The notes under the pieces: generated by a model
Told to the model about the DNA's origin: nothing
Seen by the model: only the letters and a program-made list of their open reading frames with translations
Database searches by the model: none
From: Chrysomallon squamiferum
Taxonomy: Eukaryota; Animalia; Mollusca
Assembly (NCBI GenBank): GCA_012295275.1
Contig: CM022679.1
Span: 16,058,001 to 16,122,000 of the forward strand
Length of the DNA: 64,000 nt
Direction of reading: 5' to 3'
Part shown: positions 3,975 through 44,822 of the stretch, in pieces
Numbering within the stretch: position 1 is the first letter of the stretch
Layout of the letters: each line of letters opens with the position of its first letter
Made by a program: the position numbers and the translations under genes

Positions 3975-5724
3975 TCAGTTGATGAAGTTGGCCAACCACC
4001 TGAAACCTTCGCCGTAGCCTTGTCTCTTTAACACACTGCACATGAACAACTCCATTGGTCGACCGGGAAGATCACTACGACTTACATTTGCCTGAAACAG
4101 AATTAACATTCAGTGAATAATCAGCTGTTGGTTTTTATCTTTTTTCTGAATACACTAATATAATAAAGTACTATGAATGATGAATCAATAAATTAGCAGC
4201 AGTAATAATGAGAATTATTATTAAAAATGTATCAAGGTGAAATGGATGAAACACTGAAAGCCATAAAATCAAAAACAGAAATACTGATGTACTGAACTGA
4301 AACAGTATCAATAATAAAGTCATTTTTCAGCAGAACAGAATTCAACAACATTCAATTTGAGCAAAATAAATGAAAATAAATAATAAAATATTTAAGAGAC
4401 CCAGAGTATTACAAAGAAAAGTTCTGATTGTAAATTAACATGTGAACATTTGAAATATTATAAAAACTGTGTCAGATCAGAATGATTGCAGATATTATTT
4501 ACATATATTTATTTATTAATAATTTTACCTTTCCAGTCATTCCATATATGTGAAGTATTATAAAACCAATGACAGAATGATTATAATCGGCAGATAAAAA
4601 TATTAACATATAGATTGATTTATTCATAATTTTACCTTTCCAGTTGTCATTCCATGAAGACCGAACATATGTCTTACTTCATCCTCACTGGCTGCTCCAG
4701 GTTTGTCTATCTTGTTTCCTAGAATCAACACAGGAGCATTTGCAACCTGTTCATCAGCTAACAAACTCTGAAACATATACATTATTCATTTCTATTATTT
4801 TAATTACAAAAACAAAATTGTATTGGGTGACAGACAATAAATAATTTCATTAAATTAGAGGATTAATGCAAGAACATTACTTAGATATTTCATTTTAAAA
4901 AGTTAAAAAGTTTAATATAAGTTTTTTTTATAATATAGTTTTTGCTTCTAATATCCACTGAATGGATTGTTTCATTATCATCTTCAAATATTATCCAGTC
5001 ATAATTGTTTACTCACATCTAATTCAACCTTTGCTTCAGGAAAGCGTTCCCTGTCAAAGGCATCAATGAGAAAGACAATCCCATCCACTGCAGGAAAGTA
5101 ATCTTTCCACACTCGGCGAGCTGTAAGAAAACATGTCAAAATATAACCTGTCTGAACACAATGATTTTATCTTTACACAAAAATTAGAAAAAAATCAACA
5201 ATTATCCATTACTGTCAACACACAATATAAGACCCAATTGTATAAATTACATACATTGATTCTAAAGTTATATGTTGTGTTCTTGGATTTCAAAATATAT
5301 AAAACCAAAATGCCAAGTTCAAATGAATTTTTTTTAAATATTTTAATAATACTAATAATAGAATTATCGATATCAATTATCTTAAATGAATTAAGTTTTA
5401 AAACTGACAGAACTATAAATAAGCCACTGACACAGATGTATCCAAACACTGTAATCATAATCATATGTATTAAAAATATGATACAAAAACAATAAACTAA
5501 AAATATAATCACCTTGTTTGTGTCCACCAAGATCAAATGTTGTAAACTTCATCCCACCCATGGAAAGTTCTTCTGATGCTAGAAAATAAAGTTTTTGTAA
5601 ACTTATGAATAATAATCATATTGACAAGCATATTTATATTATTTGTTTCTCATTTTGAGCTGACCTTGTAATTACTGCCTTTTTTTATATAATCAACGTT
5701 AAATTTAATTTACTGTGTGTGTGC

Positions 5725-5807: not shown

Positions 5808-7308
5808 TCAGAGACAGAGAGCAAGAACTAAATGTTTCAATCAAACTGTTGTAATGTAATGATCTATATTATTCAAATTAAAAGTGCCTGTTATATTCCT
5901 ATAAACTACAATCGTAACAGGATAATCTTTACTGTCTAAACACCTGTTACATGAAAATATGATACATAATGCTACAATCTGAAAGCATGCATCAAAGTGT
6001 CAATGTTAATGCCATGCAAGTGTCAGGATTACTTCAAGAATACATTAGTTCTACTTAATATAAATAAAACAATGCTTTTAACATGTTTATAGTGTAGACC
6101 CACTTAAATATAACAATGGGAAATATTAGCAGTTAAGATTCTACAAAACACAGCCTAACAGAATGTCACAGATGGCCACAAAATATGCTAATACAGTTCA
6201 TATTTGACATACTTTTGCTTATGTATCTATCAAATATTATTACTGTTAAATAGAGCAGATGATCACAGAATATACTGCATTCAGGAGAGAGTTAATTAAG
6301 ATCATGTGAAGGTTTCTATTTTATTATTTAAAGGGATGAGATAGTAATAACAAAAATGGTAATGCAAGTTAAAAACATAACATTCAAAATTAAAATAAAT
6401 TACATTTTAGAATTCAGTTAATATTCAGTGTGGCTCAGAAGTAATCCATCAGACAAAGGATTCATCTTTATTAGCAAAAGAAACAGGACATTTTGAAGAA
6501 AAAAAAAACAGTTACTACAATTAAAACACATTTTTAAATGATTTGTAATTTGTCTCTTATCTAAATATTTTCATGCACATACTTTTTTTCTTCTGTTTCT
6601 TTATAAAAACATGAATGTTCCGACTTGGTGGCTTTTCTGTTACTTCTAAGCCACTCTGTATGTCAGTAAACACTGATATATATATCAGGAAAGTATACAA
6701 AATTATAAACTCAAAAACATATTTAAAGTCTGGGCTTTTAATTTAATTTATGTGTCAGTCTGTTTTATTATTATTACTATTATTATATACACACAAACAC
6801 AAACATAATATATATGTGTGTTTTTTAATATTAATTTTTTGTTTCTTTATTTGTTTTTTAATTTATTTTATTTTATCTATTTATTTAATTTTTTTTAATA
6901 TTAATTTTTGTTGTTGTTGTTGTTATTCTTGTTGATGATGTCCCACTAATTTGAATTATCGTTATTTTCTTACTTGGGTGAAGTGTAGGGACATGTTGTG
7001 CCATTCTGTCATCTTTGAGCATGTGCAAAAGTGTTGTCTTTCCTGCATTATCAAGTCCCAGAAACACAAGCTTACCCGATTTTTTGTACAAACCTACAAA
7101 ATCAAACACATGCTGTTAAAACAAACAGGCAAATGCAAAAAAACAAACAAAAAAACCCAGCTCAGTAGGATTAAGAAAGAACTGGAACGAAGCAGCCTGT
7201 AAAATAACATTCTAAAAATTAACAATGTGGATAATGGACAATTCAAAACCAAAAGAAACTTCATCACAGGCTAGAGATAAATTAATACCTTGTTTTAAAA
7301 TTCACCTA

Positions 7309-7340
<32 letters not shown>

Positions 7341-7936
7341 GGCTTGTTTGATAAAAAATCAAGCAATTTTTATCTTTCACACAGAATGAAAAGTATCTTT
7401 CACACTAGAATGTATTAAAAATTATATCAATGCCTTTGATGAAGTTAGAGTTATTAGTGTTTAACTTTCAACAAGAATGTTGTGCTTATAAATCCTCGAA
7501 ATCCAGACAAAAGACATGTAACTAAAATTTAATGCCTCTCTATTAACTATTTCCTTTCTCTACACAAAGTCTTAAATCTTGAATTTAAAAGTTTTATAAG
7601 CACAAGTCTGGGTTTTATAATGCAAGGTAAATTTCAACAGGCTGATGATCAACTCGAGCCTGGTTACCACATACTGGGGTGAAGTGTTGGAACTGGCTGT
7701 ACCATATGACCTTCTTTAAGAACGCCTAACAAAGTTGTTTTGCCAGCATTGTCCAAACCCAGAAGTATCAGTTTTCCTGATCGTTTAGTCAATCCTTAAA
7801 TAACAGTCAACATGTAGTAATTACAGATATATATATTTTTTATATCATTAAGATTAACAGAAACATCAGTTTGATCCTTTGGATGACCAAATTTATATTT
7901 TGTTATTGATTATAAATAAATAATCTTTCATTCTTG

Positions 7937-7994: not shown

Positions 7995-8716
7995 TAAATA
8001 AAATTTACATGTAATATAATAATAAATAAATATATATGAATTTATGACTTTTCTCATGTGTATCTGCAAAATGTCCTAAAAAGTATTTTGTTAGTATAAA
8101 GAATTTTGTGTCAGCTGTGCTCTTCCCCTATTTAGAAGAAAGGTGTTTTTATATGTATCGATCCAAGAAACAAGAAAGCACATTATATATACTCTGTGGG
8201 GGGGGGATATTTTGTTTTATTTGTCTTAATATACATGTTTTACTTGATAAGCTAATATTTTTCATTCCTGAAATGGAAACAATACAAAATTTACAAAATG
8301 TGAAAAATAAAAACAGCATTTATTTTTAACTGGAATACCTATGGGTCTCTATGTATGTATGTCAGTATTTGTTTGTATGTATGTATATCATGATCTAAAA
8401 TAACCAAAGATAATAATAATAATAATATCTGAAATGATACAAGTTTTCTTTTAAGTGAAGGTGTTTATATAAAAAGTTCATAAGATGTTGAGGTTTTTGA
8501 GTTTTAACTTTTATCTGTACACTTATTACAGAAAGAATATTATCTAAATGTAATTGGTTATTTTTTTTTTTTTTGCCTTGAACCTTGATGACCAAGAATG
8601 TCTAAAAAATATATGTCATATAAATATTATCTGAATAAATATGAATTGAGAATGCTATTCAATCACAACTTACCAAGAAAATTCAGCATACTTGCAAACC
8701 ATTCCCATAGAAACAT
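3975..8716 (-). CDS. SAR1: Small GTPase Sar1 (COPII initiator), 193 aa, 6 coding exons plus one alternative exon
   Basis: Exons (minus) 8716-8674, 7093-6974 (or 7794-7675), 5578-5513, 5120-5017, 4767-4636, 4091-3975 are all GT-AG bounded and total 582 nt. Translation [93 protein letters not shown]...[11 protein letters not shown]...[23 protein letters not shown] has the G1, switch I, DLGG and NKID motifs of Sar1. A probable 5'UTR exon donor (GTAAGT) lies at 9302-9307. Confidence 0.97.
4451..4655. repeat. Degenerate tandem duplication (about 100 bp unit) spanning the SAR1 exon 5 donor
   Basis: 4451-4545 and 4551-4655 both read TGAAxTATTATAAAA...CAGAATGATT...GCAGATA...ATAATTTTACCTTTCCAG(TTG)TCATTCCAT. 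Confidence 0.75.
5727..5805. repeat. (GA)n/(GACA)n microsatellite
   Basis: Direct reading. Confidence 0.95.
6974..7093 (-). CDS. SAR1: SAR1 coding exon 2, canonical version (P-loop and switch I)
   Basis: 120 nt, phase 1/1, ttgtag|GT...CCA A|gtaag. Encodes (G)[39 protein letters not shown](T). Confidence 0.95.
7675..7794 (-). CDS. SAR1: SAR1 coding exon 2, divergent duplicate (candidate mutually exclusive exon)
   Basis: 120 nt, phase 1/1, tttaag|GA...CCC A|gtatgt, no stop or indel. Encodes (G)[39 protein letters not shown](T). Not in the supplied ORF track. Confidence 0.85.
7940..7991. repeat. (TA)n microsatellite
   Basis: Direct reading. Confidence 0.95.
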
Positions 8717-10916: not shown

Positions 10917-13656
10917 TCCTTTGTTACAATTTCTGAAATATATTTACTGTTTAAACAGAAGACAGTAACTCTGTGTGATAGTGAATAATATTTAAGTACT
11001 TCAGTGGATGTTGACCTAACTCATACGTAACTGATTTTTTGTACAGTAATAAATTTTAGATAAAAATAATTAGCTGAATTCTTTTTTTTTTTTTTTTTTC
11101 TCCTTCCTATATTTAAAATTTAAATCTGTTCACAGTATTAAAGATGATGTGAAAATATGCAAGTTTTTTATATACAGACACCAACTTGTACTTTTTAATA
11201 ATTAACAAAGATTTTAAGAAATGAAAATTAATAAACAAAAATCACTTTTGATTTGATGGTTTTTATTATTTTCCTATTAACAATTTTGAAGTGCATCAAA
11301 AACCTGTTGAAAGTGTTGGATGCATATTATGTACATTTTTGTCAGTGGTAGCAGCATTTACAAAATGTGCTCAAGTGCTTAAGAAAAAGCACTTGAGCAA
11401 TTAAAAACATTTACACACATATTTACAATGATGGAAGCAACATGTACTACTTGTTTGGCATGTTAGAGCTAAAAAAAAAACCAAAAACAATACATGGCCT
11501 TAGCACATGATAAATTCAAGCATAACTTAAGATAAAACTAACAGAATTTGATAAAAGATATTTAGAAAAAGGACAAATCAGCACAATTAAGAACTGAATT
11601 TGCTTGCACTTGCAATATGGAATATCCAACTTAATTAATTTAGTCTTAATTTTCATCATCTACAAATCAGAAAGGTTTTATAAATCAAATATTTGTTCAT
11701 TACACTGTTTAAAACAAATGAACATAAACAAAATTTAACAAAAAAAACCCAAATATATCAGCAAAAATAAAAAATCATGATGATTTTTTTAGATTATTAA
11801 TTTTTAATTATTTTTGGGTAATAAAATAATGTAGCAACATACTAAAAAATTGTAATACTTGTGATGACAATACATAGTGTGTAGATAGAGATAACTATTT
11901 AAAACTTTACTTCTTAACTGATTACAACATGCCACTATTAAAACAGGTTGAGCGAATAATCAAACATACATGTATGAAGATAGGAATATATTAAATAAAT
12001 TTATCTGAACTAAACGAGGAATATGAACAGAACAATAAAACTGCAACATTTAACAACATTTTACATAAAATTAAACGGATACATACACCTATACCCTAAT
12101 AAGAGAAACAGTTTGTATTAAAAAGAAAAAAGGTTATGCTTACATCTTGCCCTATTAATGACATTTGTACAATAATTAAACAAAAACATAAAGATAGATA
12201 AACTAGAACAGTATTACAGGCAAAGAAAATATTCAGGCATATTATTTTATACATTTTCTCCATCATAACATAAACACATTGACAAAATTATGATAACTTA
12301 AAAATAAGATTTTAACTGCCAAAAGTTATTTTTATCTAGTTATTTAGGGTATTTGGCAGAACATATTTACAAATCCCGAACAGAGCAAAGCAAATTTATC
12401 ACTTTTATAAGCACTGCTCAAAAAATGTTTCATCAATTCATCAATTTATTAATACCAAAAAATAAAGATGCTAAAGTGCTTCATCAAATTAGGTATTTAC
12501 ATAGTTTTCAACTATATAAATTTTAGGTCGCTAGAACATACTGATTTACAACATAAAAAAATTTCCCCTTGTTCTTTTTAAAATAAAATAGGATCAGTGC
12601 TTTAGAAAATAAATAAATAAATAAAATCCTTGATCAAAAATTTAATTTAATTCAACATAGCAGTAATTTATTATAACCCAAACATTTTGTCTGGTATCTA
12701 AGATTACTGAAAACAATTTTGAAAATGAGTTTTATAAAATGGAAAAAGTTGTTTATATTTGAACTGTCCCTTTATTAATTATGACATCATAATGCAAGTA
12801 ATAAATTTACATTTCTACAAGTACTTTACACTTAAGAATCAGCCGTGCATCCAAACTCAGTTAAAAGTTTTCAAATTACTTTCCAAATGTTTTATTTCCA
12901 TACAATTTCATACACACCAAAATTTCATTCAACCACATCTCAATTTATCCTTTTTTGTTCTCATTCCCTCATCTACATAATTATTTTAATGATCAAGGAA
13001 CATGAATCACAAAATATTTTATTACCATATCCATAATTTACTTGTAATTTACAAACATCAGCACCAATCCTATGGGTTAAAACAACATGCACACATATAG
13101 GGCATAAAACCAAAATGTTACATTTAACATTAAAAACATTTATCTTTTTTTTTTTTTTTTTTTTTTTTGAGATCAGTTATTTGCAATCACTAAGCAAATG
13201 CTGACCATTTATTTATTTAAAACCAGATTAGTGTTCTTTTTTGTGGTTTTTTTTTTTATCTTGCCACATACTGATTATCAAAGATGAGTTTAACTTGCAT
13301 AATAATGAATTCATGCCAGCTATTGAGCTTTGGTAATTTAACAGTTTGACAGTTCTGCAGTTTCTCATCATTACTGGTATGAATGTCTTTTAAAACAGTG
13401 TTCAACAACCATTTTGGTTTTTATTGTTTTTAGGTTTATTTGCACTTGTTTGTCCTTTTTAGTTTGGAAACATATTAAATTTAAAAAAAATAACAACAAC
13501 ATTTTTATCTTTCAGGAAGATCACTACTTTCTAATGTTTATCAACAGGTTCCTTTGTGCTTTACTCATTTGCTATTCACTGACACAACACGACTGACACA
13601 ATCACAATGGTTTAGTCTGCTGTGATGGTCATGCAGCTGCTAGATGAACAGTTTGG

Positions 13657-16600
13657 TTAGCTTTTGGTTCTTTGCTGCAAATACTGCAAAAATTCATAGT
13701 ACGACATGCTCGAATCAGTCCTGTCTTCAATCATATGTTCAAAAAACAGATATCGCATTTTGCTATCTTCCCTGGAAATAATTAAAAAACAAACAAGGGC
13801 ATTAAATTTATTTCTGAATATTAAGACCTTGAAAATAATTACACTTCGACACATTTTAAATAAAAATTAAAAAAGGCATTCAAATTCCAACAGTATAAAC
13901 AAAACAAAAATATTTTTTATCCAAATTATTTTATGAATTAAATAGAAATTTATAAAAATAATTTCAAGTAACAATTATTTAATACTAAACTTAAACTTAA
14001 AAAATAAAAATAGGAATTAAGCAGACAAGCTTTATTAGAGTGAGTATAAAACATTTCAATTTGTCATAAGTTTTGTAAGATAAAAACAACATTTTAATCT
14101 ACCTGAAGGCTGTGAGATAAAATGTGCCAGACAAGTTTAAAATGTGATCAACTCTGATTTCTTTACCTGATAATGTGAAATGTGGAACCACTAGGTGCAC
14201 TGTCTGTCAAATTGTTCACAAAGTTCCTCACATTTTCTGAAGTTGGGTTTTCAAGCTCTGGCAAATCAGTCTGAAACATTAAATATTAACAAGTTATATA
14301 ATATAAACTTACCATATAATGGAAAATCTCAAGCTTTTGCCAAATTCATGGAGAAAACATAAACATTATATTTGATGGTTATATTTAACAAATTTCTCTG
14401 TTATTTCATTGAAAACAAAGCCCTGCTATCTGTCCATGCCATGAGAGACTGCTGAGAAATTAAGAATATTTCAAGTCACATAACAGACAAAACGTTTCTA
14501 GTTGAACTCACCATGCCATCAGGTATGGACATAAAATTAGGTTTATCAAAGACCTGCTGACAGAAATGATCACTGACTGCGCCGCCCACCAACATCAACA
14601 TCTGTTCACTTGAGTCCATGAGGTACACCCCGTGACGGTCAATGTTTGCAGACGTCAGCTGCAACACTGGTGGTTTTGGAATGGTAACGCCATTCTTTGT
14701 TTCTGTTGGCTGAAACCAAATATCAATTATATAAAAGATATAAAATTAACCATGGCTTCGTATTTTTGGAATAACAATGACAACAACAATAATTTTAACG
14801 TAACAGTACTAAAAATTTGACAAAGATTTTTTAGTTTTTTTTAATCTTATTATTTCAGTAAACAATTGCAGAAAATCATCTGGAGTCTGAATGAAAATTG
14901 TTAAAGGCTGTTCATTTAAAATAAATAAGGCTGATAATTGTACCATAGAGCAATACTCACAAAAACATGAAAGAGAATATTTTTTATAAATGTTGATAAA
15001 ATAGAAATATTACATTTTACATTTTATTTCACTTTTCTTAATATATAGTCTTAACACATTAATAACAGATTCTGCAACAACTGTCTGAAAACTGCATCCT
15101 ACTATTTATAAATCTTACAAACCTCCTGTTCCAAGTTGTGTACTGGGTACAAGTTTGGATAAACAAGCTGCAGCAAGTAATTACATGGTAGTGACTTGAA
15201 CTGCTGCATCAGAAACACACGTTCATCCAGTTTGATAGACGGAGACAATCTAAATGCATTCTGAAAATAAAAATAAAAATTATTTACACTAATTTTTAAG
15301 ATTGTTATATTAATGACAGTTAAGATTCACCAGGCTTAAAAATAATTTTCAACTGGCTTTTTTGAGCTAATTGAAATAATATATACTTGCCTGACTATTG
15401 CACTTTCTAAATTTCAGTTTCAATTTCAATTATATCTATTATATTGGACTGTCTATTTTCATACTTTTAGCAACCTAATGCCTATCATATTTTAATCTTG
15501 AACACCTTGTGAGTTCTTAATATTTAATCCTGAATAATGCTAAATACATCTTTAGCAAGAAAATTGGTGAGACAAAGAAAAATAACACAAAACAATAAAT
15601 TTACAAACATTCAACAGATTTTCTAAAAAAAAAAAAAAGGAGAAACTTACACTTTTTATCAGAGCCAGAATAAAGAGAGGCATACATCGGAGAGTGAATG
15701 GGTAAAGAAGAGCTCCAACTCGCTGAGATGGTGCAACCTGGCCTGCATAGGCCTGCGTGGCATCAAGAGCTGCATTGATCATAGCATCTTTGGCATCCCC
15801 AACTGACGATGAAACTGATCTGTCAACAGCTGAAAAAGTAAAATACAAAATATGTGATAAATATAAACATTTAAAAATATCTGTTAATAAAGTGTCAGTA
15901 TCTGACTTTTTAATGAATTTTTTTTTGTTCTAAAAAGATTGTGCCAGAATTTAGTATTATAAGAAGAATAATGTGAAATGTATACACACCCATTTTGGCT
16001 AGTAGAGAAATAATAGCTTGTTGATCAGCTCCTCCAAACACATCAGAGATCTGACTAGTGACAGGCAAACACAAAGTATGTACACGTATCCGTCGTTCTC
16101 CTGCAAATGTAGTAAAAATTAAAACTGATATGCAGGTCAGAAGCATCTCAGAAATCCTATTTATTTCAAATATTTCAAATAGATAATAAACTAACATTTC
16201 TATAAAAGTCTGGTTTCACATGTGAACAAAAAGGGTTTTTTGAAAAAGGGAAAAAAAGAATATATTCCTTATGAAAAGAAATTGTCAGTCATGTAGATAG
16301 CCGTATGTCATTGAAAATGATAAACAATTTTACCTTTGCTAGATGTGTAGAGCAGAGCTGCCTGGAAACAGACCGTGGACACCTCAGTGAGGTTGTCCTC
16401 TATAGACATCTGCATTCCAAAACCTGCATCTGGGTTGATGTTAGGAAGTGAAAGCAAGTCAGTAGACCGTACAAAGAAATTGCCATGAAACGTGTGGATG
16501 CTGAGACCTATAAATAAAAATAACAAAAGATTTTTTTTTTTAAATGTATATATTAAACTTGGCAAAAATGATCTTTAACTACTCTATATAGTATTAGATT

Positions 16601-17576
16601 TTTACACCAAAAAATTTATTAAAGTAACTAAGAATAGTAATAAATTAGAGGCCTATTACTTTGCACTTTGATTTAAAAAAAATTCATGATGTTCATGTTT
16701 CTGCCTTATGATTAGGGATATAAAAATGCAAAAATAAAAAATTCTCAGAATTTTTTATAATTGCCCTTTTTTATCTTGTACTTCTGAGGAATGAAAAAAC
16801 CCCATCCAAAACACTAAATGGTTTCTTTACCTCTTGTACATCTAATTCTCATGACTGCTTCAAAACCAATTTTTCTTGTGAAGTATCGTCTCAGGTCCAT
16901 ATCAAACTTGTCAGCCAGGCTGGTGTTCTTCACAGTGTGGAACGAGGGGTAGTACTGAATACAGCCTCCCGAGTACTTTGATATACACGCTGAAACATGA
17001 AGAAAGAAAAATATATTTCTTAAAGGTTTTACTGATGTCAGTTATTTCAAATAAATATACATTTTTTTTAAAAACATCTACAGATTTTACTTTCAGACTA
17101 AAATACAAAAAAATACATAATAAACATAAAACTGTTATAAATAAAGTTACTGCTCTAATTGGACCGAAGTTTTTGAAAATGTTTACAAATTAGGTATCAC
17201 CAGAAATGTGCAAATAAACCAACCCAAAATATATATTTTATTATTGTATTATTAATTTAAAACACTTTGGTACACTGATCTTTCCACCAAGTTCAGCCTA
17301 CAGTTATAATTTACCAACTGTTTAGATGAAACATTGTTTTAAAACCACTGTATTTGGTCAGGTCCTATATTATATACCTAATGTGGCGAGATCAGCATAC
17401 TGGCCATTGAGCATGAACAAATCAACAGCTATCTGCTGTGCAGAAAAGTCAAGTGCTAACTTCTTGTAGAAATCTGTGGCTGGACCAAGATGAGGTATGT
17501 TCTGCAAAAAACATAAAAAATAATAATAATAATAAAAAATAATAATAATAATAATAATAATAATAATTAAAAAAAA

Positions 17577-17613
<37 letters not shown>

Positions 17614-20600
17614 CATAGTCATAATTATCATAACAATAAAATAAAATAAAATATTTTTTAACTAATTATATTTATATACAGAAATCAAATATTTTTAGTT
17701 TAATCATCTTCAAGCTTGTGCATTATTGAAAAAAAAAAAAAAAAAAGATACAGAAGTCATAAACTCATCATAAATATCTAAAATCACATTTGAAAGTATA
17801 ATCTCATATTTAACTCACTTTTCCTAGATCTTGTGTTGGCATCTCTCTTACTTGGAGAGCCCCTGGTCCAACTGTGGGTAAAACAGTCTGCATCACTGTC
17901 ACACGACCACCAGTAGCACTCTGTGGAAACAAAAACATAATAAATCATCTATGAAATACCTATCAAATAGCCTCATATCCACAACCAACTGTCTGTACAG
18001 TACACACTAGTATGTGTTTGTTGCTAATAACAACCAGCCAGTATATTCTGCCTACTTCCATGTGGCTGTTTTTGTTTTAACTTCTAATTTTACTTTTTTA
18101 GCAATAAATTAAGGCAGTGAAAAAAACAATTCCCTGACAGATTAATGAAATTAGTTTTGATTGATTTAGTTTTGCAGCTTCTCTAATTATTTAATGATTT
18201 TTATTTCTTTTTAAGTTTATATGAATCAGAAGTGATAATAATAGAGAAGTGTCATCTTCGTGCATTTTCATAAATTTATAATTTGATTGTTATACTTTTT
18301 ATCAGCAATCTATAATTCTGGTACTAAACAAAACAACAATTTAGAAGTATTCAAAATATATTAAACCAACAGAGATAATTCTAGGCTTTTATCATAGTTA
18401 ACACTGAAAACAATTTATTTACCATTAATTTAAAGGCAGCTTGCAAGGCAGCTCCCAAGGCACTTCCAGTTTCGCCATTCGATTCAAATAGAGTAGGCAG
18501 CTGAGAAAGTAGATCAATAACCAAGTCTTTAGACTCATGAAGATTCACTAACAAATTGTCTGGACATGGCAGGAAAACATCTGAAAAAGTATTTATCATT
18601 TTTAGTAATTTACTACAAAATTTAATGAAAGAAAAGAAAAAATTCATTACAATAAAAGAAAAGTAGACACTGACAAATACTTATCAAAAAAAAAAAAAAA
18701 AAATAAAATGAACTGACAGTATCAGCTAAAAGAATGAAAGGTCAATAAACAGGCAAAATTTTATTAAAACAGCTTCAAGGTTAGCTTTAACAAGCAAAGC
18801 AATATTCACAAAATACTGAAAATATAGTTCCTTATTTATATGTGACCAACCTCAAAATAACTAGCTAGTAATAACATCCTAACCTATTACAATTATATTT
18901 TAAAAATATTTTATTTTAATATTTGTTATTTAAGTAATTATTTAATTATATTAACCTTCTAGGTCTGGGACTATCATCATCTGTGGCTGGGCTAGACCCT
19001 CTTCCAGACTGAAGAAGTACAGGAATCGATCATAACCCACAAAACCAATCTGTGTTCGAGAATCTCCTGGCAGTTTATCCAGTTCATCCAACAACGTCTG
19101 ACAGAATAAACTTAAATAACCTGATTTTTAAAAAACAGAAAAACATTCATCAGTTCTCAGATAAAATATTCTCTACTAACAAGCAATTCCATGAAGCAAT
19201 ATTTCTTAAGAGTTTATTTTTAAAATATTGCTAATAGCCTTGGTTATTTTCTTAATATCAGAGGATGTAACACTGTAAGAATAAATATATTGTGTAATGA
19301 TACATATAAACCATTATTTGAATTTCATACAGGAAACAATTTAGACAGTTACCTTTTTAACATATAAGATTTACCTGTTTCAACGGCATTAAACGAGACA
19401 TCTAACAAAAATAAATACACAGCTGGCTGAGGAGGTCTCAACTGAAAAACAGAACAGAACACATTTACAAATATAAAATGTAATTATACAGTATAGTTAA
19501 ACTTATGTACATTTATTGATTAAATTCTAAATATTTAACAAATAAATAATAATAATAATAATCAGAGGTCCCTAAATATGATGCACCGTAAAAATAGCAT
19601 ATTCTCACAAAATATTAAATAAAAATATCTTAAATAATTTAAACAGTGATATATCACCATTATATTTTACATGGCTCTGTTTCAGAATAATATTTAAATA
19701 TAATAATGATAACACTTTTTTTGTTCTATTAATAAAAAAAAATGCACATAAACATAATATTTATGATAACAATAGGGAACTGATTGTAACAGTTCAATGG
19801 TATACCAAGAATGATGAATCCTGCAAACTACCTTTCATTATGCCATGATAAGCTCTACAACCTACAGACAATTTCATTAAAGCTCACAAGAGCAGGTTAG
19901 GAAAAACAAATCTCACCATATATTCAGAAGGTGCAATAAACTCGATTGTGGAGGACCTCACTTCAGGGCGTCGTTGTGGGTCGCCGTATGTTTTACTTAC
20001 AGGATCAAATGAAAACTCCTCTGGCACTAGAAATTAAATAAAATATTTTTAAAATATGCAATTCAAAAATCACTGAAAGAATCAGTTATATTTACAAAAA
20101 TCATTCTAAATATATTATATTAATATTGAAATAAAGTCATGTATAGTATTTTTATTTAAAATACTTACATTCATTAACCCTGTAACAAAGATTGCACTTC
20201 CACCTTCGCTGATCAAGGAAATGAACAAAAGGGTTGATGTAGGTTCTACATGAGCGACATCGCACTATCACACTTGACTGAATCACAGGCAATTGCTGAA
20301 AAATATAAAACAATACAAACCCTAAAAGTCTGCAAACAACAGAACGAAACCATACTAAATGAAGTTACAATTAAAACAACAGCTTTAACATTAATACACA
20401 TTGTAATCTAATCCTGAAACTGATTCCTAATTCATACAAACGGACAATCCAGAAGTGTAAGCTCAAAAATATCTCTCATAAAATGTCACTGATCACTTTT
20501 GGTATCAAAAACAAATATCATATCATTATGTCTACCATTTGAAACAGTAGAATAGCCCAAATAAAATATTAATAAAATTAAATTTCTGTCTAAAATATAC

Positions 20601-23600
20601 ATATGCATTAAGTATTATACAGGTTTGTGACTTACTAAATTTGTAACTTTATCATCTTACCTGCCAAAATATAACAACAACAGTATTTCCAAAGTGAAAA
20701 TACTATTAATAAATATGCATGTTTAGCTGTACTTTGTATTTAATTACAATGGTATTGAGAACTGAAACAAATGCTCAGATACAGCTTATCAGGAAAACAT
20801 TGAATTACTTAATACTATTTCTCTTATTCTTCGTTTTTAAATGTTACAATGAATTGTCTTAGGTATTATAAACAAAAAGCCTAACTACATAATCACTTTC
20901 AAGTAATTATTTTGTGTTAGTTATCAAACTATAATATGTTTTTATTTATTTATTATAATATATCTATATTTTTAATCTTTGACAATCTGAGGTATGACCA
21001 ATGTTCAAATTACAAAACATACTAAAACTGCTATTTTTGTTTGTTTTCTTTTTTCCTTCTTTTTTTTCTTCTTTTTTTCCTAATTTATCTTAGTTTCCTA
21101 TCAGAAAAGACTAGTACCAGTAAATCACTTGGTAGTGTGCTACATTTATTCAGGCTTTTTGCTACCATCCTGACAAGTACATTATATTAATTTTAAGTGG
21201 AGATCATTTATCTGTTATTTTCATGTTAATTCTAGACAGCGGCATACAATGCCTTACATAACAAAAAGAAAACTGGTAAACATAGAACACAATATTCTCA
21301 ACCATGCCAACAAAATTGGCATCCATCATTTTCACCAGATTAAACAAACACATACAAAATAATATCATTATGGTACATGATTTGCAACATGGACAGATTA
21401 AAATATTTTCTTTTTGAAAAAAGCTAATGAGAAGTTTAAACTTTAATGAATTGTAAAGTTTGTAATCCTGTTGGACTGTTTGCCAAACAGCTTTCTTTAT
21501 TCCATAAAATTCAAAACTTTATTATATATTTTTGTATTTTCAATAACAAAAAAAACCTAACAACATAACAAGTGTCATTTGTTCATCTTTAAAAGCAAAT
21601 GCTATTACATAATGTTTCTAGGTTAAGTCAGTGTAAATATATTTACACTGAAAATGAAACCAAACTAGCAGGTCATTAGTGACAAGGTATAACCTAATAT
21701 TTATACATCAGTCAAATAAAATTCCACTGATAATTTACACATCATAAGTTATTCTAGAGTTTCTTTCATCTTTCAACATAAAATATCAGTTAACATTTAT
21801 ACAATAACAGCTTAAAATATAATTAATTTCCTTCAGTATGAAGAAAAAGGAAAAAATAAATAAAAACCTGCAAAAGTGTTAGAAAATTTCTTATATACTG
21901 AAGAAAATATTAATAATAAGATAAAATATTTTATTTAAGGTGGATTCTGTAAATTAAATTTACTGATGACTTTCTGTTAACTGCTCACTGTAAATGCAGC
22001 ACTAAAATAATAAAATAAGTTATAATTCAAAGCTTTGTTTCAGTCCTCCACATAACATACATGTACTTAAATACTCAAGTTCATATTTTCAAATAAACAC
22101 AAGTAAAAATAATTTTAATGAAAATAATGAGGTGTTTTTGTTGTTTTTTTTCTTCTTGTTTTTTTTTTTTTTCAAGGGGTGTAAATATTATTATTATATG
22201 CATATATACATATATTTGTTTTATTTTTGTTGTATTTATTTACTTTCTATGAACATTCAAAAGATTTATTTCAGTTTTAAAGATAATGGAACAATAATAA
22301 TGTAACAAGGAAACAAAAACAATAATTGTATACAATACATACACAGTAAAGTGTATTTTATCAAATCTCATAATACCAGTTTACAATGTTTGTCCCACCA
22401 CAGATGTTAAATATGAAGGGTATATGATAAATAAAACTGGTGTAAAAACAAGCCTGACATGGTACACTTTACTATGTAAGTATAGATAAATAACAATTAA
22501 AACTACAAAAGACAAACAAAAATTCTTTTTTTAAATATAACTGTACTCCATTGGGTTTGATTCTGACAGTAACCTTTTAAATGGTTAACCGTGGAAAGCA
22601 AAAACTGCTATTCTTCATGAACTATCTAATTCAGTAATACTATTCATAAATAAATAAACTATAATATTCAACTGACAGACAGCTGATAATAGCTCAAGTT
22701 CATTATTCTTCATGCTAGTATCAATTTATTTGAATAACACACTAACAATGTGAGCAAGACAAAAAAAAGTACAGCAAACACATGCATTACAAGTGAAAGA
22801 CTTCAGGGAAAAAATAAATACTTGACAAAAGAAAAACATTTTATTGATGTGACAGCCAGACTGCTTACTACAAAAGCTATATATGTTATAATTGATTAAT
22901 AATAATGAGCATGCCAGGTGTAAAGTGCAAGACAAAATATCAGTTCTGATAGCAGTTTGAGCCACGTAAAAATAAAAAGGAATTCAAAACCAACAAACAT
23001 CTTGTAAATTTTAAAATAAGTCAGCTGAATATAACAAACTTTTATTTGTTATTTAACACTTAAGAAATAACAAAACTAAAAAGTTATTATGTATAAACTA
23101 AAACCAAAAGATATCAAAAAATAATAATTATAAAGTATAGAAAACAATTCTTTTTTTTCTTTCTTTCTTAAACACAAAAGATTGTTAATAAAATTAAATT
23201 TGTTTAGCATAAACTAGATTTGAAAACCTCCAGACAGTTTTCATCAGTTGTTGCTTCTGTTTCTTCTTCACTTCCTTCATCTGACTTTTTATCATAACAA
23301 ATATTTGGCCCCATGTCATCTTCCCAATATTCCTTCTGATCCATAGGTACATCGTTGTCAATGTCACCATCTAAATCTTGTGTCAAAGCTGACGGGGACA
23401 CATTATCATCCTCCTCACTCTATTTGGTTGTTATATTCAGAAAATACAAATCCTTTCTAACATCTATTACTTACACATTAAATTGTGGGGTTGTTTGCTA
23501 TTTTCTCTTCTTTTTTTTTTTTGTAAAAATATCTTAACAATTTAAATGGAAATAAAAAGCATGGAAATGAATTATTCAAATAAACTTCAAAATTATACTC

Positions 23601-26600
23601 ATATTCCATTACAGTTATTTCATGTACATTTGATTAAGTCTACATGCAACTGAGGAAATGCTAATTATTTTTAAATGTTTAAATAATCATGCCATTTCAG
23701 ATTTTATTATACTGTCATCAATAAATTAGCAGTTATCTCAGTAATAGCTAACTAAATTTTTTGCTGAATGGTTTTAGTTATCTTCAGTGAAAAAAAAAAT
23801 ATTTATTTTAAAATTTAAGAGCATTTCTTATGTATCAAATTAATTTTTAGAACTTAAAATTGTAAATCACTGATGTTTGTTTTTATTTCCACATTAATAT
23901 TTAGGAACATTTTAACCAAAAAATGCTTTGGAAATCAAATTAAAATAATACCAAAACACATGATTTACGACTTATTCATTTTTCTTTTATTCCATCTTAG
24001 TTTAAAATGTGTCAAACAAACACTATAATTTTTCAGTGTTAGAATATAATTAACAAATTATTCAATGTTGTTGCTGTTTTGGAATTATGTGTTATTTTTA
24101 TATGAAATTCCTGATTTTTCAAAACATTTACTAAGAATATTTTATCTACTTCCATTACCAAAACATTGATTTAGATGCATTATCAATCTTTCACCCAATA
24201 TATAAGACAATTTTTTATTGCAAGAGGGTACAAATTGTTTCAATAACCAGATACAGAATTTTAAGATGAAACCATATGCCCAAAGAATACACAATAAAAT
24301 TTAAATTTAAGAAGATATAAAAGATGAATGATAAATCAAATAAAAATATTTACTGTGAATGAACAGCCATGACCTTAACTTTTCTAACAAAGACAGGAGA
24401 TAATTCTGTTTGCCAGGTAATCTTTAACTTAATTTAAACAAACTGAAATGGTACTTACAAAATCATCAGGATAAGTCTGTAAAATAATGTTCAGTGTTTG
24501 CATTTCATAATTTACAGAGTTGATATATGTTTATTGGTTACTAACTGGAACACAATGGGTCAGGTTGAAGTGTATCAATGAAATAATGTTACTAATACAT
24601 AAAAGAAAAAAGGCAAGAAACAAAGCAAAGATATATGGAAGCATGCAACTAAGTTGTTATTGGAAAAATAAAAGAAACAATTAATTGTAGGATATGAAAT
24701 CAGTTAAGAATTTATAACCGATATATATAACTTGAATTATATGTACAGATTTGTAGGAGCCTAGCAAGATTTCTGGCCAGTCATGTGAATGATGTTTTCC
24801 ACATACAGACATCACCTTCTGGGTTAGTTTCACATTACAATTAATAGCCACCAACCTTTATATTTAGATAAGGCATCAAGCATCACTTACTTCATACAAT
24901 GAAACTTTTACTGATTTTATTCAATGTCTCACAGAAAGCAGAATTACAACTAAATCTTAAGTCTTACTGGTCTATTCTTTTTACATTATAATTCAAAAAC
25001 AAATAATAAATTTCATTTGAAATAAACTGCAATATGTGGACTATGAGTTTAAGAAATGACAGTTAAATTCACATTTAGCTCATGGTGTTACTCTTACAGG
25101 GTTATATTCTTAAAAATTTAACAGAATATATAAACTACATTCTTGCAATAGCATTTATTTGTGTAATTGCTTTATAGTTTATTAATACTATATTAATTCG
25201 TCTGTTGAATGCATTCATTTACTTTAAAAAATAGAAATATATATTTTGTTGTTAGTCAAATAAGCAATCATGTACCATAATATTCTACTAAATTATCACA
25301 TTCAAAATGTAACAGATGAATACTCACAGATAAATCTTTAAAAGGATGAATTAATATTCCAAGTGGCAATCTCGATTTGCTCAACAGAGATGCAGTCTGT
25401 GGAATGCATCTTAAAGTACACCTAAAAATTCTGTGGAGAAAATGTTTTTATTTTTTTATTATTATTGTCATACATGAAACTCAAATTACAAGGGTGAATT
25501 AGACTGTTTACAGAGGTGAAAAATTAACCAAAATTTGAAATGATTAATTTCTCAGAACTTGTAATAGAGAGATAAATATAAATAATATATTATGTTTCTT
25601 TTTTAACTGTTGCTATATGACATTTTGTAATCAGAATATGATAATTATAAACTGATATTTGTTTAAATACTTAAAATTTGATTTTGTATCATTTGTTGAC
25701 ATAAATAAATAAAGCTGTATCAATTAATATGCTTTTAAAAACACATACTCTGGATTGCAGTTAACATTTTTGAAGTCGTGCTGCAAGGTAGGTTTAACTG
25801 TTTCCAGACCATCAGGTGGTATCAATGTTTTCTCCTGCATTACATTCACTGTTCTCTCAGAATCCTGGAAAGCATAACATATCAAGTTTTCAAATAAGAA
25901 ACAACCTGGTTCTCCTGTTCTTTATCTTAAAATCATCTTTTAATAAAAAAAAAAAAAATTCTTACATAGTCAAATAAAAACAGATCTTTCAATCATCTAG
26001 CAAATGTGACTATATTATATTAAATTATCTCTTTGTTTTATTCAGTAAAAAAATGGATACAAAAAATTTGGCAATATACTAATATGAGATTAACTTATTT
26101 TAATAAAAGGAGAATTTATTTTCAGAAAGATTTTCACAAAAAATCTAACATGTTTTAATCAATTTTTCTAATACTAAAAACCAAAAAAAAAACCAAAAAA
26201 TAAAACAGTTCATAGAACATAAACAATAAGTGGATTATCTTGAAACTGAATGCATACAGTACTGATTAGAACTTTGTATCAGAAACAATACCACAAAATA
26301 AACAATAATGGGATTAATCAAAAACATAATGTGGTACCAAGGAAAAAGTATTGATTATAAAATTGAATTATTCAATCTTAAACATTTCTTGTATTTAATT
26401 TTATCAATTAAACAATGTAGAGACTAAAAAAATATCTCTGAACTAAATAATTTTTTGGATTTTGAGTTATATACAATTCTTGGCTATCTATTATTTAAAA
26501 TTCAGTGTATATTTTTTTTTTTTTTTTTTTTTATATAAAAATTTTAATTTAAACTTGTAACCAAAAATATATAAAGAAAAGTCAGCAGCAAAAATCATGA

Positions 26601-29600
26601 ACTGAAATTTTACAAAGGTCTGGGACTTAAGAAACGAAAAAAAAAAAAAAAAAAAATATCACACTGTTATACTTACAGTTTTATAAACAAATATTTAAAA
26701 ATTCAGACTTACATTGACGCCAAGTTTTCCAAATTCATATGCCATAGAATTTACACTGTTTTGCTGTGGCATCATTTTCTGCTGTCCAGGCTGAGGAAGA
26801 TTAAAGCCTCCTTGATTTACTGGTGGAAGCATTGGACCTGCTGATGGAGGCACATGACCTGCTGATGGAGGTACATGACCTGCTGATGGAGGCACATGAC
26901 CTGAGGTTGGAGGTACTGGTCCAGCCATTGTCCCCATAGGCCCTGACACAGACCCACTTTGTGGTTGGTTACTATATGGTTGTACAGGTTTCATCTGATT
27001 TGTCTGGTATGGTTGAGTTGCTGGTACTGCAAAATTCTGTGTTGGTGGAACTCCATATGTTGGTTGTGGATTCTGTCCATACATTCCTGGCTGGGGAACA
27101 GGTGGGCCACTCGTAGGTGGATAAGATCCCTTTAGACAGAAATTAAAATAAATTAATTTAAAATATTTTAAAACATCCTTTATAAGACACACAAAAAAGA
27201 TACGATTCAAGAATGATAATTAAGCAAATGAATCAGTGATAAAATTATCAAATAAAAAATGCAGTTCTAACTGTTTGAAAATAAATAACATTTCTTAAGT
27301 ATAATACTATACTTCTGCCGTATCTAAAAGAATGTAACAAAATATTATATCAAATTTCAACCATTACCATTTGTGGATACTGGCGCCTGCCAGTAATTCC
27401 CACATTCTTCTGACTTGTCTCCGTTTGTCCCGGTGTTGGTGGCTGCTTGGCAATCCCAGAAGATGGAGGCATGCCCGATCCACCTAAAGACAACAATTAT
27501 TCATTAAAATATTTGATATTTAAAAAAAAAATGTTTTTAAATAAACACAAATGACACATTAAAAATATGCAACATTAACTGAGCCAAAAAGAACTATTGA
27601 TTTATTCAAGACTATTATGTAAACACTGAAGTATAATTATAAATACTGGGCTGCTAATCACATGCACATCTGCCCCGTTAGAGAACATACAGTTTCTAGC
27701 AATTAAGGAAATAATAATTTCTCAATAAAACTAGTCCACCAGAAAAAACAATAAGACAAATTTCAAAAAGTAACATTTCACAGCAGTGCTGTTTGTATGT
27801 TGCTATTTTTGTTTTGTTTGTGTATGGTCTTTTTCAATATCCGATTAGTTAATCACATGGCTTAAAGAATTTTACAACTCTGATATTTCTAAAATCACTG
27901 TGAAAATTAAAGATAAAAAATTTCTACTTTTAGATTTTATTGTGTTACAATTGCATAATAAGAGTTACCTTGAGACGTTGGTGTGAACTGACCCTCCAGT
28001 GCGTCAATAGACTGCATGCTGACTGGAGACGGTGCTCTTGAAGATTTCTGGGAAGGTGGGTCTAAAAGAAATATTATTTAGAAAAATACTAACAATAGTG
28101 TGTTATACTTATAAATTCTTTCACAAACTGAAAATTTAAACTAATTTAATTTTATTATCAGCTGTATGACATAACAAAGTTTCATTAGCCAGAAAAATAA
28201 ATAAGTAAAAGACAAGCAAAACAAATGCATGGGAAGTCACACATGAAAAAGAACAAATTAAACAAACAGATCAGAATGACAACTTCAGAGATCTTGCTAC
28301 ATACTATAAAAGATGATGGCATGTTTATTTGGACTGGCTGTGATACCATTTTTGGGGTCAGCTGTTCACATGTCTTCTCCTTAAACAAAATAGATGTAAT
28401 CCAAAGCGGCAATTGTTGTATTCTTTGAAATCTGCTGGTACTCACATACCTGTTAATCAAGGCTACTATAGCAGACACTATATGGCTAAATTACTGCGCA
28501 TGAATTTCAGTGACTGCTACAAATGTTTTTAACATGCAATTGTATAAAGATACATAAATAACTTTTTAAAATATTATCTTTGTCATTCAAAAACAGATAT
28601 GTGCTTTATCCACACACTATAAAAATAATTATTATTAACAGTGCATCACCAACTCATAAATATTCATTATCACACTGCATGGCAATCTTCAACTTTCAGA
28701 GCAATAAAAACGATCTTACATTTCACACACACAATATATATACAAAAGGTTACAAAACAATATGTATATATATTATATGTATAAAATAAAAAATAAAAAA
28801 CTATATTATTTCGTAAAGAATATAATTCACAGAACAACCAGACAAAATTCGCCAACAATAGATCTTTGATTTTACTTAATTGCAAATAAAATAAACTTGT
28901 TAATAGTTAATGCATTTGATGCAATTATTAATAGGCATATTTTTGACAAACAAGTAATTTGAACATTGTTCAAAGTACTTGTACCCTGGAAATTTTCTGT
29001 ACAATTCCTTTGTTTAACTTGCACGAGATACACTGATTCCCACCGTCCCTTTCACAAATGCTGGGGAGACCACTGAACTTATCCAATCATTAGAGGTCCA
29101 TCACTAATAATATATTACACTTCATTATTTTTTCTTTTAATATTTTGTGCACTTCACTTTAACAAACTACTAGCTAAAAACTCTTTCACATGTGCTGCAA
29201 TTAACTGTCATGTGCATTCGCACTCTTTAAAGTATTCCATCATATTGCACCTTAAAAATAAACTTTTACACAACACACAAAAGTAATTTCTTTATGTATA
29301 TACTCTCCATATCAACCAATTCTAAATATTATACATTTTATAAATAGTACATTATTAAAATAGAAGAAATTCAAGAATAATCATCCCAAAAATAAAATGA
29401 TAATCACAATACGAAAATTATCAAATATGCCTGATTCAATTGAAAACAATTTGAAAATGACACAGTAAATAACCAATAAAAAATTATAATTAAAATATTT
29501 AAAGGTAGGGATTTGTTTATTCTCATATTTATTCTCATATTTATTCCAGAATTCATGCTGAAATAAAATGGAAATATTTACTTAAGAAGAGTTTAATTCA

Positions 29601-32600
29601 TTTCATTTCTTCAAAAAAGCAATAATTTGATATTTCATGCATTCAACTATAGGTACCAGACCAATTATCCGGCGTCATGAAATAAGGAAAGACCAGAAAA
29701 CAGAAGTGTTTTCCTGATGCTATTTTCATAATTTGCACATGTGGGTATTGTCCGCACCAGACCAGTACTACCCTTTCAAGCCACATGGAGTTCATTCACT
29801 TGCCATATTGTTTACGTGTGAAGTCACCACAGTTGTGTATCAAAAATTTTCTTTAAGTTTTTAATTTTAGAATATTTATGCCTAATTATTACGTATTTAG
29901 ATGCCTTGATACCAGAAAACCGGAATGCCTCAGGCCCCAAAGAGTCTGGATAACTGGTCCAGTACCTGTATAAATTTATTGATAACCCCAAGTTTTTCTA
30001 ATGCTAATAGTGATTTTAAATTAAACACAAAATATATGTAATAAAATGAATATCCACTGTGTGTACCTGAACTATTAGGCGTGAAGCCTGGGGTCAGTTT
30101 CAATGAAGCACCAACCTGATGTGAGTACTGACCATGGCCATGGTAAGGGACAGGTAATTCATTTGGACGACCTAGGTGACCAATAAACAACATGCAAATA
30201 AGCACTGACAAGAGAAAAATCACACGAAGTGAATGGATAAAAGGTATAATGCAATTTAAAAACTTGATAAATTCACTGCAATTGGGTTAGGGTTTTTTAA
30301 CAGCAAGATCAATCATTTAAATTAATTCAAAACCATTCTTCAATATTTCAAGTTTAACAAATAACAGTTGTAATTTATATATTATATAACTGCCTGCCAG
30401 TTTTATCCTGTTTAGTCATTTATGTTAAAAAAATATATTTTTTTAATGAATATGTACATTTTGTACACCTTATAATTCATTATGCACAAAATACATCTAT
30501 TTCTACAAAATTATAATTTAATTTTTTTTTTTTTTAAATTTAACATAGAAAGAAACTCAAAAGAGAAATCAGTCTACTCAACCTGTGTAGATTTACAAAA
30601 GGTCACTAACATAATTAAAATTATCTTTGACATACCGTGACTGGTACACAAAACATTATCATTAATCAACAATCCTGACAGTATTACAATGATAAACTTA
30701 AATTATTGGAAATTAACCAAATTACTTCAAATTTAAAAAGATCAGATGTATTTTACAATTATACTGATAAGATATATATAGAAAGAAAAATTTTTCCTCC
30801 TAAATAACAAGGTCAGACAAGCTTTGTATTTAATAGTTATCACTTGTTAGTAATGATATTTTAAAAAAACCAAACCAAAACAAAATTCTTCTTTCCTTTT
30901 TCTTTGATTCCACACAACTGTTCATATGATTTAGAATTTTTTTTTAGTTTAGGAGATATAATTTCTTATATATATATATATATACACACACACAAGTAAA
31001 TTTTAAAATTTAAAACATTATATAATATCAGAAGTTTATAATAATCAACTGCAAAATTTTTTTTTTTTTTTTTTTTTTTTTCTCTATTACATTTTAGGCT
31101 TATTAAAATAATAATATTGCTACTATTACAACCAACTGCAATTAATTTCTCAATTTTAAATTTCTTTCTTTTTTTTTTCTTAAAAAATTACTGATTCAGG
31201 TTTATTAAAATAATAATATTGTTACTTATTGCATTATGACTTATTTTATTAGTAAATTCCAAAGATACCAATAAAAAGAAAAAAATTCATAAACAACCCA
31301 AAATATAAAAGAAATGACACTCACTCGTTCCCTGCACTGGCGGCATCATGTTAGAAGGGGGCATATTTGGTTTGGGTGGACCACTACCTGGGACAGTCTG
31401 ACTAGGTATGGCTTGAGGAGGAGGTGGTGGCGCTGACACATTACTTGGAGGGAAGCCTGCCTTTGGAGGTGGAGGAAAGCTGCCACCCTGTGGAGGTTGA
31501 AAATTTGAACTTTGTGATGGTGATGGACCAGTCATTGTGCCTGCAGGTGGTGGTGGCATTCGTGTCTGCTGAGGCATTCCTCCTGGAGGAGGCATGTTGC
31601 TCTGTGAAGGGCCTGCAGGCATCAACGGCACAGGTGACATTCCAGTCTGTTGTTGTGAAGTAGGAATTTTACTATCCTGAGAATTATCCATCCTTCCAGT
31701 ATTAGGTGCCAACCCACCTTGAGGGGGGTTTTGTTGGTGCATGAACCTGTTCACTGATGTGTTCATCTGATTTTGACTTGCAGGAGCATTCCCATATGAT
31801 GGTGGAAAATTTGAAGGCCCATTCATAACTGAATTAGAAAACTGAGGCACTGGCTGAAACTGTCCTCCAGATGATCCTACAAAGCCAGCTCGGTTTGGAA
31901 TCTGGTTAGCTGAAGTCTGTGGAGATGGTTGATAAGCTGTTGCTTGATTTAGAAAGGGTGGCCTTGTTCCATCAGTAACTGGAGGAACAGAGCCTAGCAA
32001 TGGCGGTCGTTGACCTGGTGAGGAAATGCCATTTGCTGGTGGGGGATGATATTGACCTGGAGGCTGGTTTTTAAATTGTTGTGGCATATTCACTGCCTGC
32101 TGCAGCAGCTGCTGAGGATGCTGTCCAGGAACAGGAGAAGCATCCAAAGGGGATCCATTTGGATGCATATGAGGACTGGGCATTCTCTGAACACCTGCAA
32201 CAATTTAAAACAAAAACAAAATAAATATCCATTGCTCAGCCAATACATTAATTCAAATATCAGTATTAAACATTTACTATGATACTTTATTATTAGCAAA
32301 AAAAATGCTCTCTGAAAACAGTTACAAAATCATTTAGGTTTTATTTTATTATCACAATAGCTTCAGTTCTTTAATATAAAAGATAATTATAATCCATGTT
32401 AAGTACTGATTTCTTCAACAATATGTCTTCTACCAGAATATGACAATTACAAAAAAAAACACATGTTAAAATTCAAACAATGTTTATGTTGCAATAATAA
32501 TAATAAATTAAACGGTTTTGTAAAATAATTTATTTTTAAGGAATATTTGTATCAACATTAGACTGTATAACTTATTAAATATAAATGTGAGACATGAAAA

Positions 32601-39502: not shown

Positions 39503-40507
39503 TCAAAGTGAACACGCACGTCTTTCTCTCGGGTACACACATTTCTTAGTGCACGGGTTGTACTCGTATCCACTGTAGCAGCTGCACAACAAACAGAAGG
39601 GTAGTCCAGGAATCTGCATCAGAGCAAATTTGCGAGGATGTCGTCTGAATGCGCGAGCTGGGTTGCACCATCGCTTTGCTGAAAGTTTAGTAAGTTAGAA
39701 CGAATGTATGGTTTAGTTTAACATCTCTTAAGATACTATTTTTTAATTATTATTTTTTTTTTTTTTTTTTTTTTATTATTATTATTTTTTTTTTTTTTTT
39801 TTTTTGTGGGTGGGAGGGGTGTGAAGTTTTAACAGTAATGACATGATTTTAAAAAAATAATAATAAATGCCAAAACAATCACAGTCGCCTCCTCCGAAAT
39901 CGCTCTTTAGTACTCTGGCGTAGTTCACATAGTGATTTACACCCGGGCATCTTCACACAGACAGGGAGACACACACTTTCAGACTGCTAGTTAAAAATGG
40001 ATGCAGTAAGAACTGATAGTGAAACCCACCATGCTATAGTGAAGTCAAATATTACACTGGTGTTACCTACTATTTGAATTAGTTTTATTCAAGGTTGCTA
40101 TATAAGTAGTAATATCAGTGGTGGTACTTACTGCTGGAAGGATAAACACCAAAAGTACATTAACTATAAATTATTAATTATGTTTCGTTTTTCCTGTATA
40201 AGAAGAGTATGCAGCTAGCGTTATTTCTACAGAAAATTGTAAACCAGCAAACAGATTTCAAGACGGGTTAATACAAATGTGCATGGGACAAAAACTGCTG
40301 TAATAACTAAATATATTAAATGTAACTTCCCAAAACGACGAAGAAGCAAGTTCGGTATAAAATAAATAAAGTTTAAAAAGCTATGAGACTGACGGTTAAA
40401 TCAAAATAGATTATACAAAAATACATTTTTATTAAAGAAAATAAACATTTTTACTGACTGGGTACTTACTATATAAACATTAATACATACATACATACAT
40501 ACATACA

Positions 40508-40540
<33 letters not shown>

Positions 40541-41962: not shown

Positions 41963-42011
<49 letters not shown>

Positions 42012-43481: not shown

Positions 43482-43515
<34 letters not shown>

Positions 43516-44089: not shown

Positions 44090-44178
<89 letters not shown>

Positions 44179-44593: not shown

Positions 44594-44646
<53 letters not shown>

Positions 44647-44774: not shown

Positions 44775-44822
<48 letters not shown>

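Follow-up and report, generated by a model that had tools for sequence, protein, structure and literature searches.

A tandem pair of P-loop/switch I exons in molluscan SAR1 probably gives rise to two forms of the COPII GTPase

Tandem duplicated exons that substitute for one another are a described source of protein variants (PMC9741552, PMC8373072). The two members of such a pair are adjacent, equal in length and phase, ancient and conserved, and they exchange a patch on the protein surface; the sections of these studies considered here include the small GTPases RAB6A, CDC42 and RAB37. We analysed a 64,000-nt stretch of contig CM022679.1 of Chrysomallon squamiferum, hereafter the window, whose SAR1 gene carries an exon pair that belongs to this class. 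The pair differs from the described events in that the whole P-loop and switch I are swapped and in that gene models with both exons are on record. SAR1 has 0 occurrences in the main texts of PMC9741552 and PMC8373072, and no Sar1 match was found in the supplements of PMC7954323 and PMC9741552, as far as these sources were covered.

A second point of comparison is the vertebrate SAR1A/SAR1B system, which likewise supplies two near-identical Sar1 proteins per genome. According to the passages of PMC7307210 used here, small differences between SAR1A and SAR1B change GTP exchange and binding to Sec23/Sec31, and many invertebrates have one Sar1 paralogue. Invertebrate Sar1 is treated in the same passages as a single, nearly invariant protein. 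Whereas SAR1A and SAR1B result from a gene duplication and show conserved differences at residues 106-117 and 139-146 (PMC7307210, same passages), the mollusc pair is an exon duplication that covers residues 21-59. The initial annotation had described the pair as an intragenic alternative to SAR1A/SAR1B; the parallel of two Sar1 forms stands, but the analogy is loose, as the vertebrate differences lie outside this exon. In the parts covered of PMC4980449 and PMC12265942, splicing of Sec16 and SEC31A likewise adjusts ER export to the type or state of the cell. These events act on a scaffold and on the outer coat, whereas the SAR1 exon swap changes the GTPase core. Among the automatic RefSeq and GenBank isoforms of mollusc, spider and beetle SAR1, the B form is on record as isoform X1, X2 or X3 under generic names. 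Among the literature matches listed, which cover few subscription papers, there was no paper on the SAR1 exon pair, and a term look-up in the accessible text of PMC7835409 and PMC9714508 gave no mention of it.

The SAR1 gene contains two adjacent homologous exons, termed A and B, each of 120 nt, in phase 1/1 and bounded by AG and GT (Table 1). They share 28 of 39 residues, 18 of which are encoded by different codons. At the nucleotide level 78 of 120 positions are identical, with a pS of 0.79 and a pN of 0.21. On recount, the exon lengths, phases, splice ends, 581-nt spacing and both residue counts of the initial annotation proved exact. Eleven replacements separate B from A (Y22T, K24R, V29I, F30L, H43G, M44V, D47E, D48G, R49H, A51V and H53P; numbering of human SAR1B, from the structure-match alignment). 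Seven of them fall at positions 43-53, in agreement with the clustering in helix 1/switch I noted earlier, and the sequence confirms that B retains the GLDNAGKT P-loop and the switch I Thr. Either exon placed between E1 and E3-E6 yields an open Sar1 frame of 193 aa; including both leaves an open frame of 233 aa and including neither one of 153 aa. Two further features of the gene were seen on the minus strand. A candidate non-coding first exon lies at ~9430-9307 and could use a GT donor at either 9321 or 9307. The last part of exon 5, including its donor (4650-4610), recurs ~100 nt downstream in the intron (4548-4510), possibly providing a second donor via a short tandem duplication.

Table 1. 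Coding exons of SAR1 and the intron between the paired exons, in window coordinates.
Feature	Position	Strand	Remarks
SAR1 first coding exon (E1)	8674..8716	-	43 nt; N-terminal amphipathic helix; common to both forms
Exon B, divergent duplicate	7675..7794	-	beta1, P-loop, helix 1 and switch I; human residues 21-59
B-A intron	7094..7674	-	581 nt; single GCATG 20 nt ahead of the A acceptor; hairpin adjoining the B donor
Exon A, canonical copy	6974..7093	-	P-loop and switch I
SAR1 exon 3 (E3)	5513..5578	-	interswitch, DxGG, His79; common to both forms
SAR1 exon 4	5017..5120	-	switch II; common to both forms
SAR1 exon 5	4636..4767	-	NKxD motif; common to both forms
SAR1 last coding exon, with stop	3975..4091	-	common to both forms

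We consider it probable (roughly 0.68) that SAR1 holds two intact switch exons, conserved among molluscs and used one per mRNA, and that it thereby encodes the usual Sar1 together with a minor GTP-binding form with different timing. This reading builds on the exon anatomy, the selection acting on B, the splicing of E1 to B in this species and a gene elsewhere that retains B alone; all evidence for B-to-E3 splicing in a two-exon gene comes from database models.

A pattern scan of metagenome contigs revealed three related loci (L001, L002 and L003), all of which have the 43-nt E1 with its GT donor. L002 and L003 contain E1, B and A in the same order as the window, with 120-nt exons and GT-AG ends. 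A homologous pair of equal order, length and phase is thus found in two of the three metagenome loci, which excludes a chance origin of the arrangement. Exon A of the window matches its counterparts in L002, L003 and the chiton at 39 of 39 residues. L001 (561-2654) has E1, B and exon 3 but lacks an A exon. Once spliced, it encodes 76 residues identical to those at the beginning of the unnamed full-length protein P0011, which is divergent beyond the exon-3 part and sits on a long branch. A gene that has retained B alone argues that B yields a usable protein. Gene duplication may have resolved the pair in that lineage. A 41-row tree built from exons 3-6 placed neither the window nor the unnamed proteins.

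When exon B served as the query, B-type proteins ranked first (30 matches among 65 candidates). The protein set comprised 292 sequences besides the two window peptides, and clustering in this set hides isoforms and biases counts. B alone is joined to E3 in 14 of the 292 proteins, namely P0011 and 13 named mollusc records. The latter stem from the chiton Liolophura, the bivalves Sinanodonta, Mercenaria and Ruditapes, and the gastropods Patella, Haliotis (two records), Pomacea, Babylonia, Nucella, Aplysia, Physella and Biomphalaria. B orthologues are thus present in 13 named mollusc species and in L001-L003. A alone is joined to E3 in 198 proteins, and by this count of 198 versus 14, biased as it is by clustering, form B is probably the minor one. 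Pairs of A and B isoforms with a common E1 occur in Liolophura, Pomacea, Mercenaria, Ruditapes, Babylonia and Haliotis, all B isoform records of molluscs being automatic gene models. Unspliced open frames through a B exon make up 25 of the 292 proteins, and the read-through tail that follows B is not conserved among them. The closest named protein to form A, that of Gigantopelta aegis (185 of 193 residues identical), was retrieved as form A only. Records without B were also obtained from the molluscs Lottia, Mya, Dreissena, Solemya, scallops and Argonauta, and none of the named records from annelids, echinoderms, cnidarians, placozoans and vertebrates contained B; as clusters hide isoforms, these records are no test of absence.

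The initial annotation had suggested an old duplicate under purifying selection, and the comparison with orthologues agrees with this. Exon B of the window and three metagenome orthologues differ by a pN of 0.10-0.14 at a pS of 0.84-0.98. The A exons of the window and the metagenome differ by a pN of 0.02-0.03 against a range of 0.05-0.14 for B, meaning that B changes faster. Its variation is unevenly distributed. Among 22 aligned B rows, G48 and S/G43 are present in 22 and V44, E47, H49 and P53 in 21 each, with position 51 variable and residues 22-25 varying freely. The 21 canonical rows carry D47 in 21, R49 and M44 in 20 each, and G48 in 1. Fixation at 43-53, variability at 22-25 and the low pN therefore identify B as a second selected state. 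In a tree of 39 columns, a branch with an SH-aLRT support of 91 separates the B rows from the remaining rows. P53 is also found in 6 of the 21 canonical-type rows and is therefore compatible with a Sar1. Canonical-type exons with Pro53 were seen in Owenia, Tachypleus, Uloborus, leafhoppers, lamprey and Seison (proteins P0070, P0144, P0146, P0087, P0088, P0147 and P0022) and could have arisen by repeated change, through paralogy or by conversion from one copy to another. Exon B is at least as old as the Cambrian split of chitons from snails and clams. The exon pair is thus real, ancient and selected. The retention of a second switch I from chitons to snails and clams means that the most conserved part of the COPII initiator is kept by selection in two settings.

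To follow the pair in transcripts of C. squamiferum, we compared the stretch 7380-7900 with assembled contigs of four RNA runs from one study (X1-X4, one contig per run). In the X3 contig, which starts at the B acceptor, 28 nt hang over as a loose end; they equal the exact end of E1, their sole match in the whole window. E1 is therefore spliced to B, and the predicted junction 8674>7794 is seen in one of the four contigs. Three of the four contigs (X2, X3 and X4) run across the B donor into the B-A intron, so that X3 is spliced to E1 yet also crosses the B donor. X1 contains unspliced intron 1 together with B and stops one base short of the B donor. Reading through past this donor reaches a stop codon after 3 codons, for a 57-aa product. 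Within 7380-7900, the four contigs contain no B-to-E3 joint (7675>5578), although contigs do not show absence, and no loose end at the B donor that would mark a B-to-A joint (7675>7093). Because contigs lose rare forms and the libraries, being metatranscriptomic, may include pre-mRNA or DNA, these data neither show nor exclude a mature B isoform.

The proposal of mutually exclusive exons held up in part. B does replace A in database proteins, which supports use by substitution; strict exclusion is unproven, as both-exon models exist and no enforcing device was detected. Both exons are included in 10 records, three from molluscs (Pomacea, Lymnaea and Batillaria; P0034, P0042 and P0207) and seven from chelicerates (P0062, P0063, P0177, P0180, P0183, P0187 and P0188). 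Decay after a frameshift cannot enforce exclusion, because the 120-nt exons keep the frame and an mRNA with both has no early stop. Steric exclusion by a distant branch point was rejected, the AG-free zone ahead of A being only 17 nt long. A competing RNA pairing of 8 bp between the B donor and the A branch region has a probability of 0.29, lacks a counterpart in L002 and L003, and was also discarded. The B-A intron has a fold z of -1.56, and its inverted-repeat list is dominated by (TA)n. All introns are GT-AG, so incompatible spliceosome types are not indicated. The window thus shows neither a frame shift nor a distant branch point, nor any pairing conserved in L002 and L003, that would enforce a choice. 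Substitution is still the likely main outcome, since a doubled P-loop/switch I presumably cannot fit one G domain. Tissue-specific splicing factors likely govern which exon is taken, in a leaky manner and without mechanical forcing. A weak lead to such a factor is GCATG, presumably an Rbfox-type motif. It occurs 7 times in the three B-A introns of the window, L002 and L003 versus 2.1 expected (p 0.0025, uncorrected), a motif first spotted by eye, after the fact, that ranks fifth among 5-mers. The 5-mers TAACC and ATAAC are also enriched in all three introns (7 vs 1.2 and 9 vs 1.5 expected, respectively).

Form B is best read as an active Sar1 whose helix 1/switch I is remodelled, with a putative kinetic effect. 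Sec23 touches switch I and supplies an arginine finger, and we take position 53 to correspond to the Tyr32 lid of Ras. Form B retains D34, K38, T39, T56, L57, H58 and P59 and has exons 3-6 in common with form A. It therefore displays the P-loop GxxxxGKT with Asp34, Thr56, His58-Pro59, DxGG-His79 and NKxD; the Sar-defining residues given in the part of PMC3012027 considered here are all kept. For the chiton B form, the best solved-structure matches are SAR1B (E 1.6e-90). Taking switch I as residues 48-59, as in the relevant passage of PMC2150902, four of the seven changes at 43-53 lie in switch I and three at the end of helix 1. Across molluscs, the B swaps are H43G/S, M44V, D47E, D48G, R49H, A51V/T/I and H53P. 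Mutation of the retained L57 blocks budding according to the same passages of PMC2150902, where this is cited as unpublished. The passages of PMC3778437, PMC11919764 and PMC9974494 covered here hold no residue-level data on 43-53. In the initial annotation, switch I was said to engage Sec12. The literature excerpts do not support this and place the Sec12-binding surfaces of Sar1 outside switch I, on parts common to both forms, with the Sec23 surface overlapping that of Sec12. Recognition by Sec12 should therefore be common to A and B as well. Modelled with AlphaFold on alignments of 15 and 16 rows, the B and A forms of the chiton reached mean pLDDT values of 69.5 and 66.4, low in the exon for both, and the predictions are too weak for a comparison of switch I. 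A fold search with the AlphaFold model returned Sar1 first, as the sequence predicts.

We propose that splicing would select A or B in each mRNA and so produce either the usual Sar1 or the minor form B. Judging from the kept residues and exons 3-6, form B is predicted to bind GTP still and to be loadable by Sec12. The swapped region, from the end of helix 1 through the front half of switch I, would be the flexible segment closing over the nucleotide, where the likeliest effect of Gly48 and Pro53 would be an altered mobility of switch I. This could change intrinsic exchange or Sec23-stimulated hydrolysis, and in turn the lifetime of the coat. The two forms, 11 residues apart, offer a natural pair for testing how helix 1/switch I controls coat lifetime or cargo choice in strongly secretory animals.

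Arthropods also carry an exon copy at the corresponding upstream place. In spiders, a scorpion and a pseudoscorpion, this copy shows G/S43 and P53, as in mollusc B; for Argiope and Stegodyphus, models exist that include A alone, the upstream copy alone, or both. In the 39-column tree the chelicerate copies side with B against A with a support of 73, and they may be orthologues of mollusc B. Insects and a shrimp have a far more divergent SAR1 exon copy at the same upstream place, mostly without equivalents of T39 and T56; these proteins (P0289-P0294, P0064-P0068, P0071 and P0077) were left out of the exon tree. Six beetle RefSeq isoforms use the upstream copy in place of the canonical exon, with Ala at the T39 position in four and Thr in two, and the switch I Thr in none. 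Convergent tandem duplication is described as common in the passages of PMC9741552 used here. The degenerate insect and shrimp copy is a candidate for a natural pseudo-GTPase that would inhibit ER export, which could be tested in beetle models. It is conceivable, if doubtful, that the switch exon was duplicated in the protostome ancestor as a splice-controlled dial of ER export, which would have become a retuned active Sar1 in molluscs and chelicerates and, through decay, a nucleotide-defective pseudo-GTPase inhibitor exon in insects and crustaceans. If this is true, a single splice choice makes the essential COPII initiator its own inhibitor.

The arthropod copies also bear on whether form B is a brake or a Sar1 outside COPII, which would bind Sec12 and couple poorly to Sec23/24, thereby dampening ER export or serving another partner. 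The loss of the T39/T56 equivalents from most pancrustacean copies, the use of such a copy by the six beetle isoforms, and the concentration of changes in helix 1/switch I next to Sec12 surfaces common to both forms would all fit. Mollusc B, however, keeps every nucleotide-binding residue as well as L57, and the link from arthropod copies to B consists of the chelicerate support of 73, with the pancrustacean copies outside the tree. We regard either role as unlikely. That A and B are biochemically equivalent, B being a relaxed spare retained for expression reasons only, appears highly improbable. The higher pN of B and its freely varying residues 22-25 would be expected of a spare, but residues 43-53 are fixed in three mollusc classes in a state unlike the one fixed canonically from cnidarians to vertebrates, which points to a second optimum and not to drift.

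It is also very unlikely that B mainly lowers Sar1 output, its transcripts keeping the next intron or both exons and ending in decay or a useless protein. The crossing of the B donor by three of four contigs, once after E1-B splicing, and the 10 both-exon records are in line with such a role, as is an ATTAAA at 7533 in the B-A intron. Yet the X3 contig ends 46 nt beyond this signal with no poly(A) loose end at that point, and the cover of the intron is explained by pre-mRNA or DNA, since the libraries are metatranscriptomic and one contig spans unspliced intron 1. A role confined to lowering output also sits poorly with conservation at the amino-acid level when synonymous sites are saturated, with a read-through tail that is unconserved in the 25 unspliced B-type records, and with a B-only gene that has a full ORF. 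We favour the reading of form B as an active, second Sar1.

Two other genes in the window were recognised in part, both on the minus strand. A Sec24-type gene at ~13650-32200, oriented like SAR1, ends ~4-5 kb upstream of it. It was identified by Pfam matches to the Sec23/24 trunk, beta-sandwich and helical domains, together with a zinc finger and the last exon, and we take its fragments to be of the A/B subtype. Linkage of the COPII partners Sec24 and Sar1 may be ancient: mammalian Sec24a and Sar1b are adjacent, head to head, in the passage of PMC3575404 considered here. Exons of a glycoside hydrolase 18 (chitinase-like) gene occupy ~40500-55000, with at least 2 repeats joined by Thr-rich linkers.
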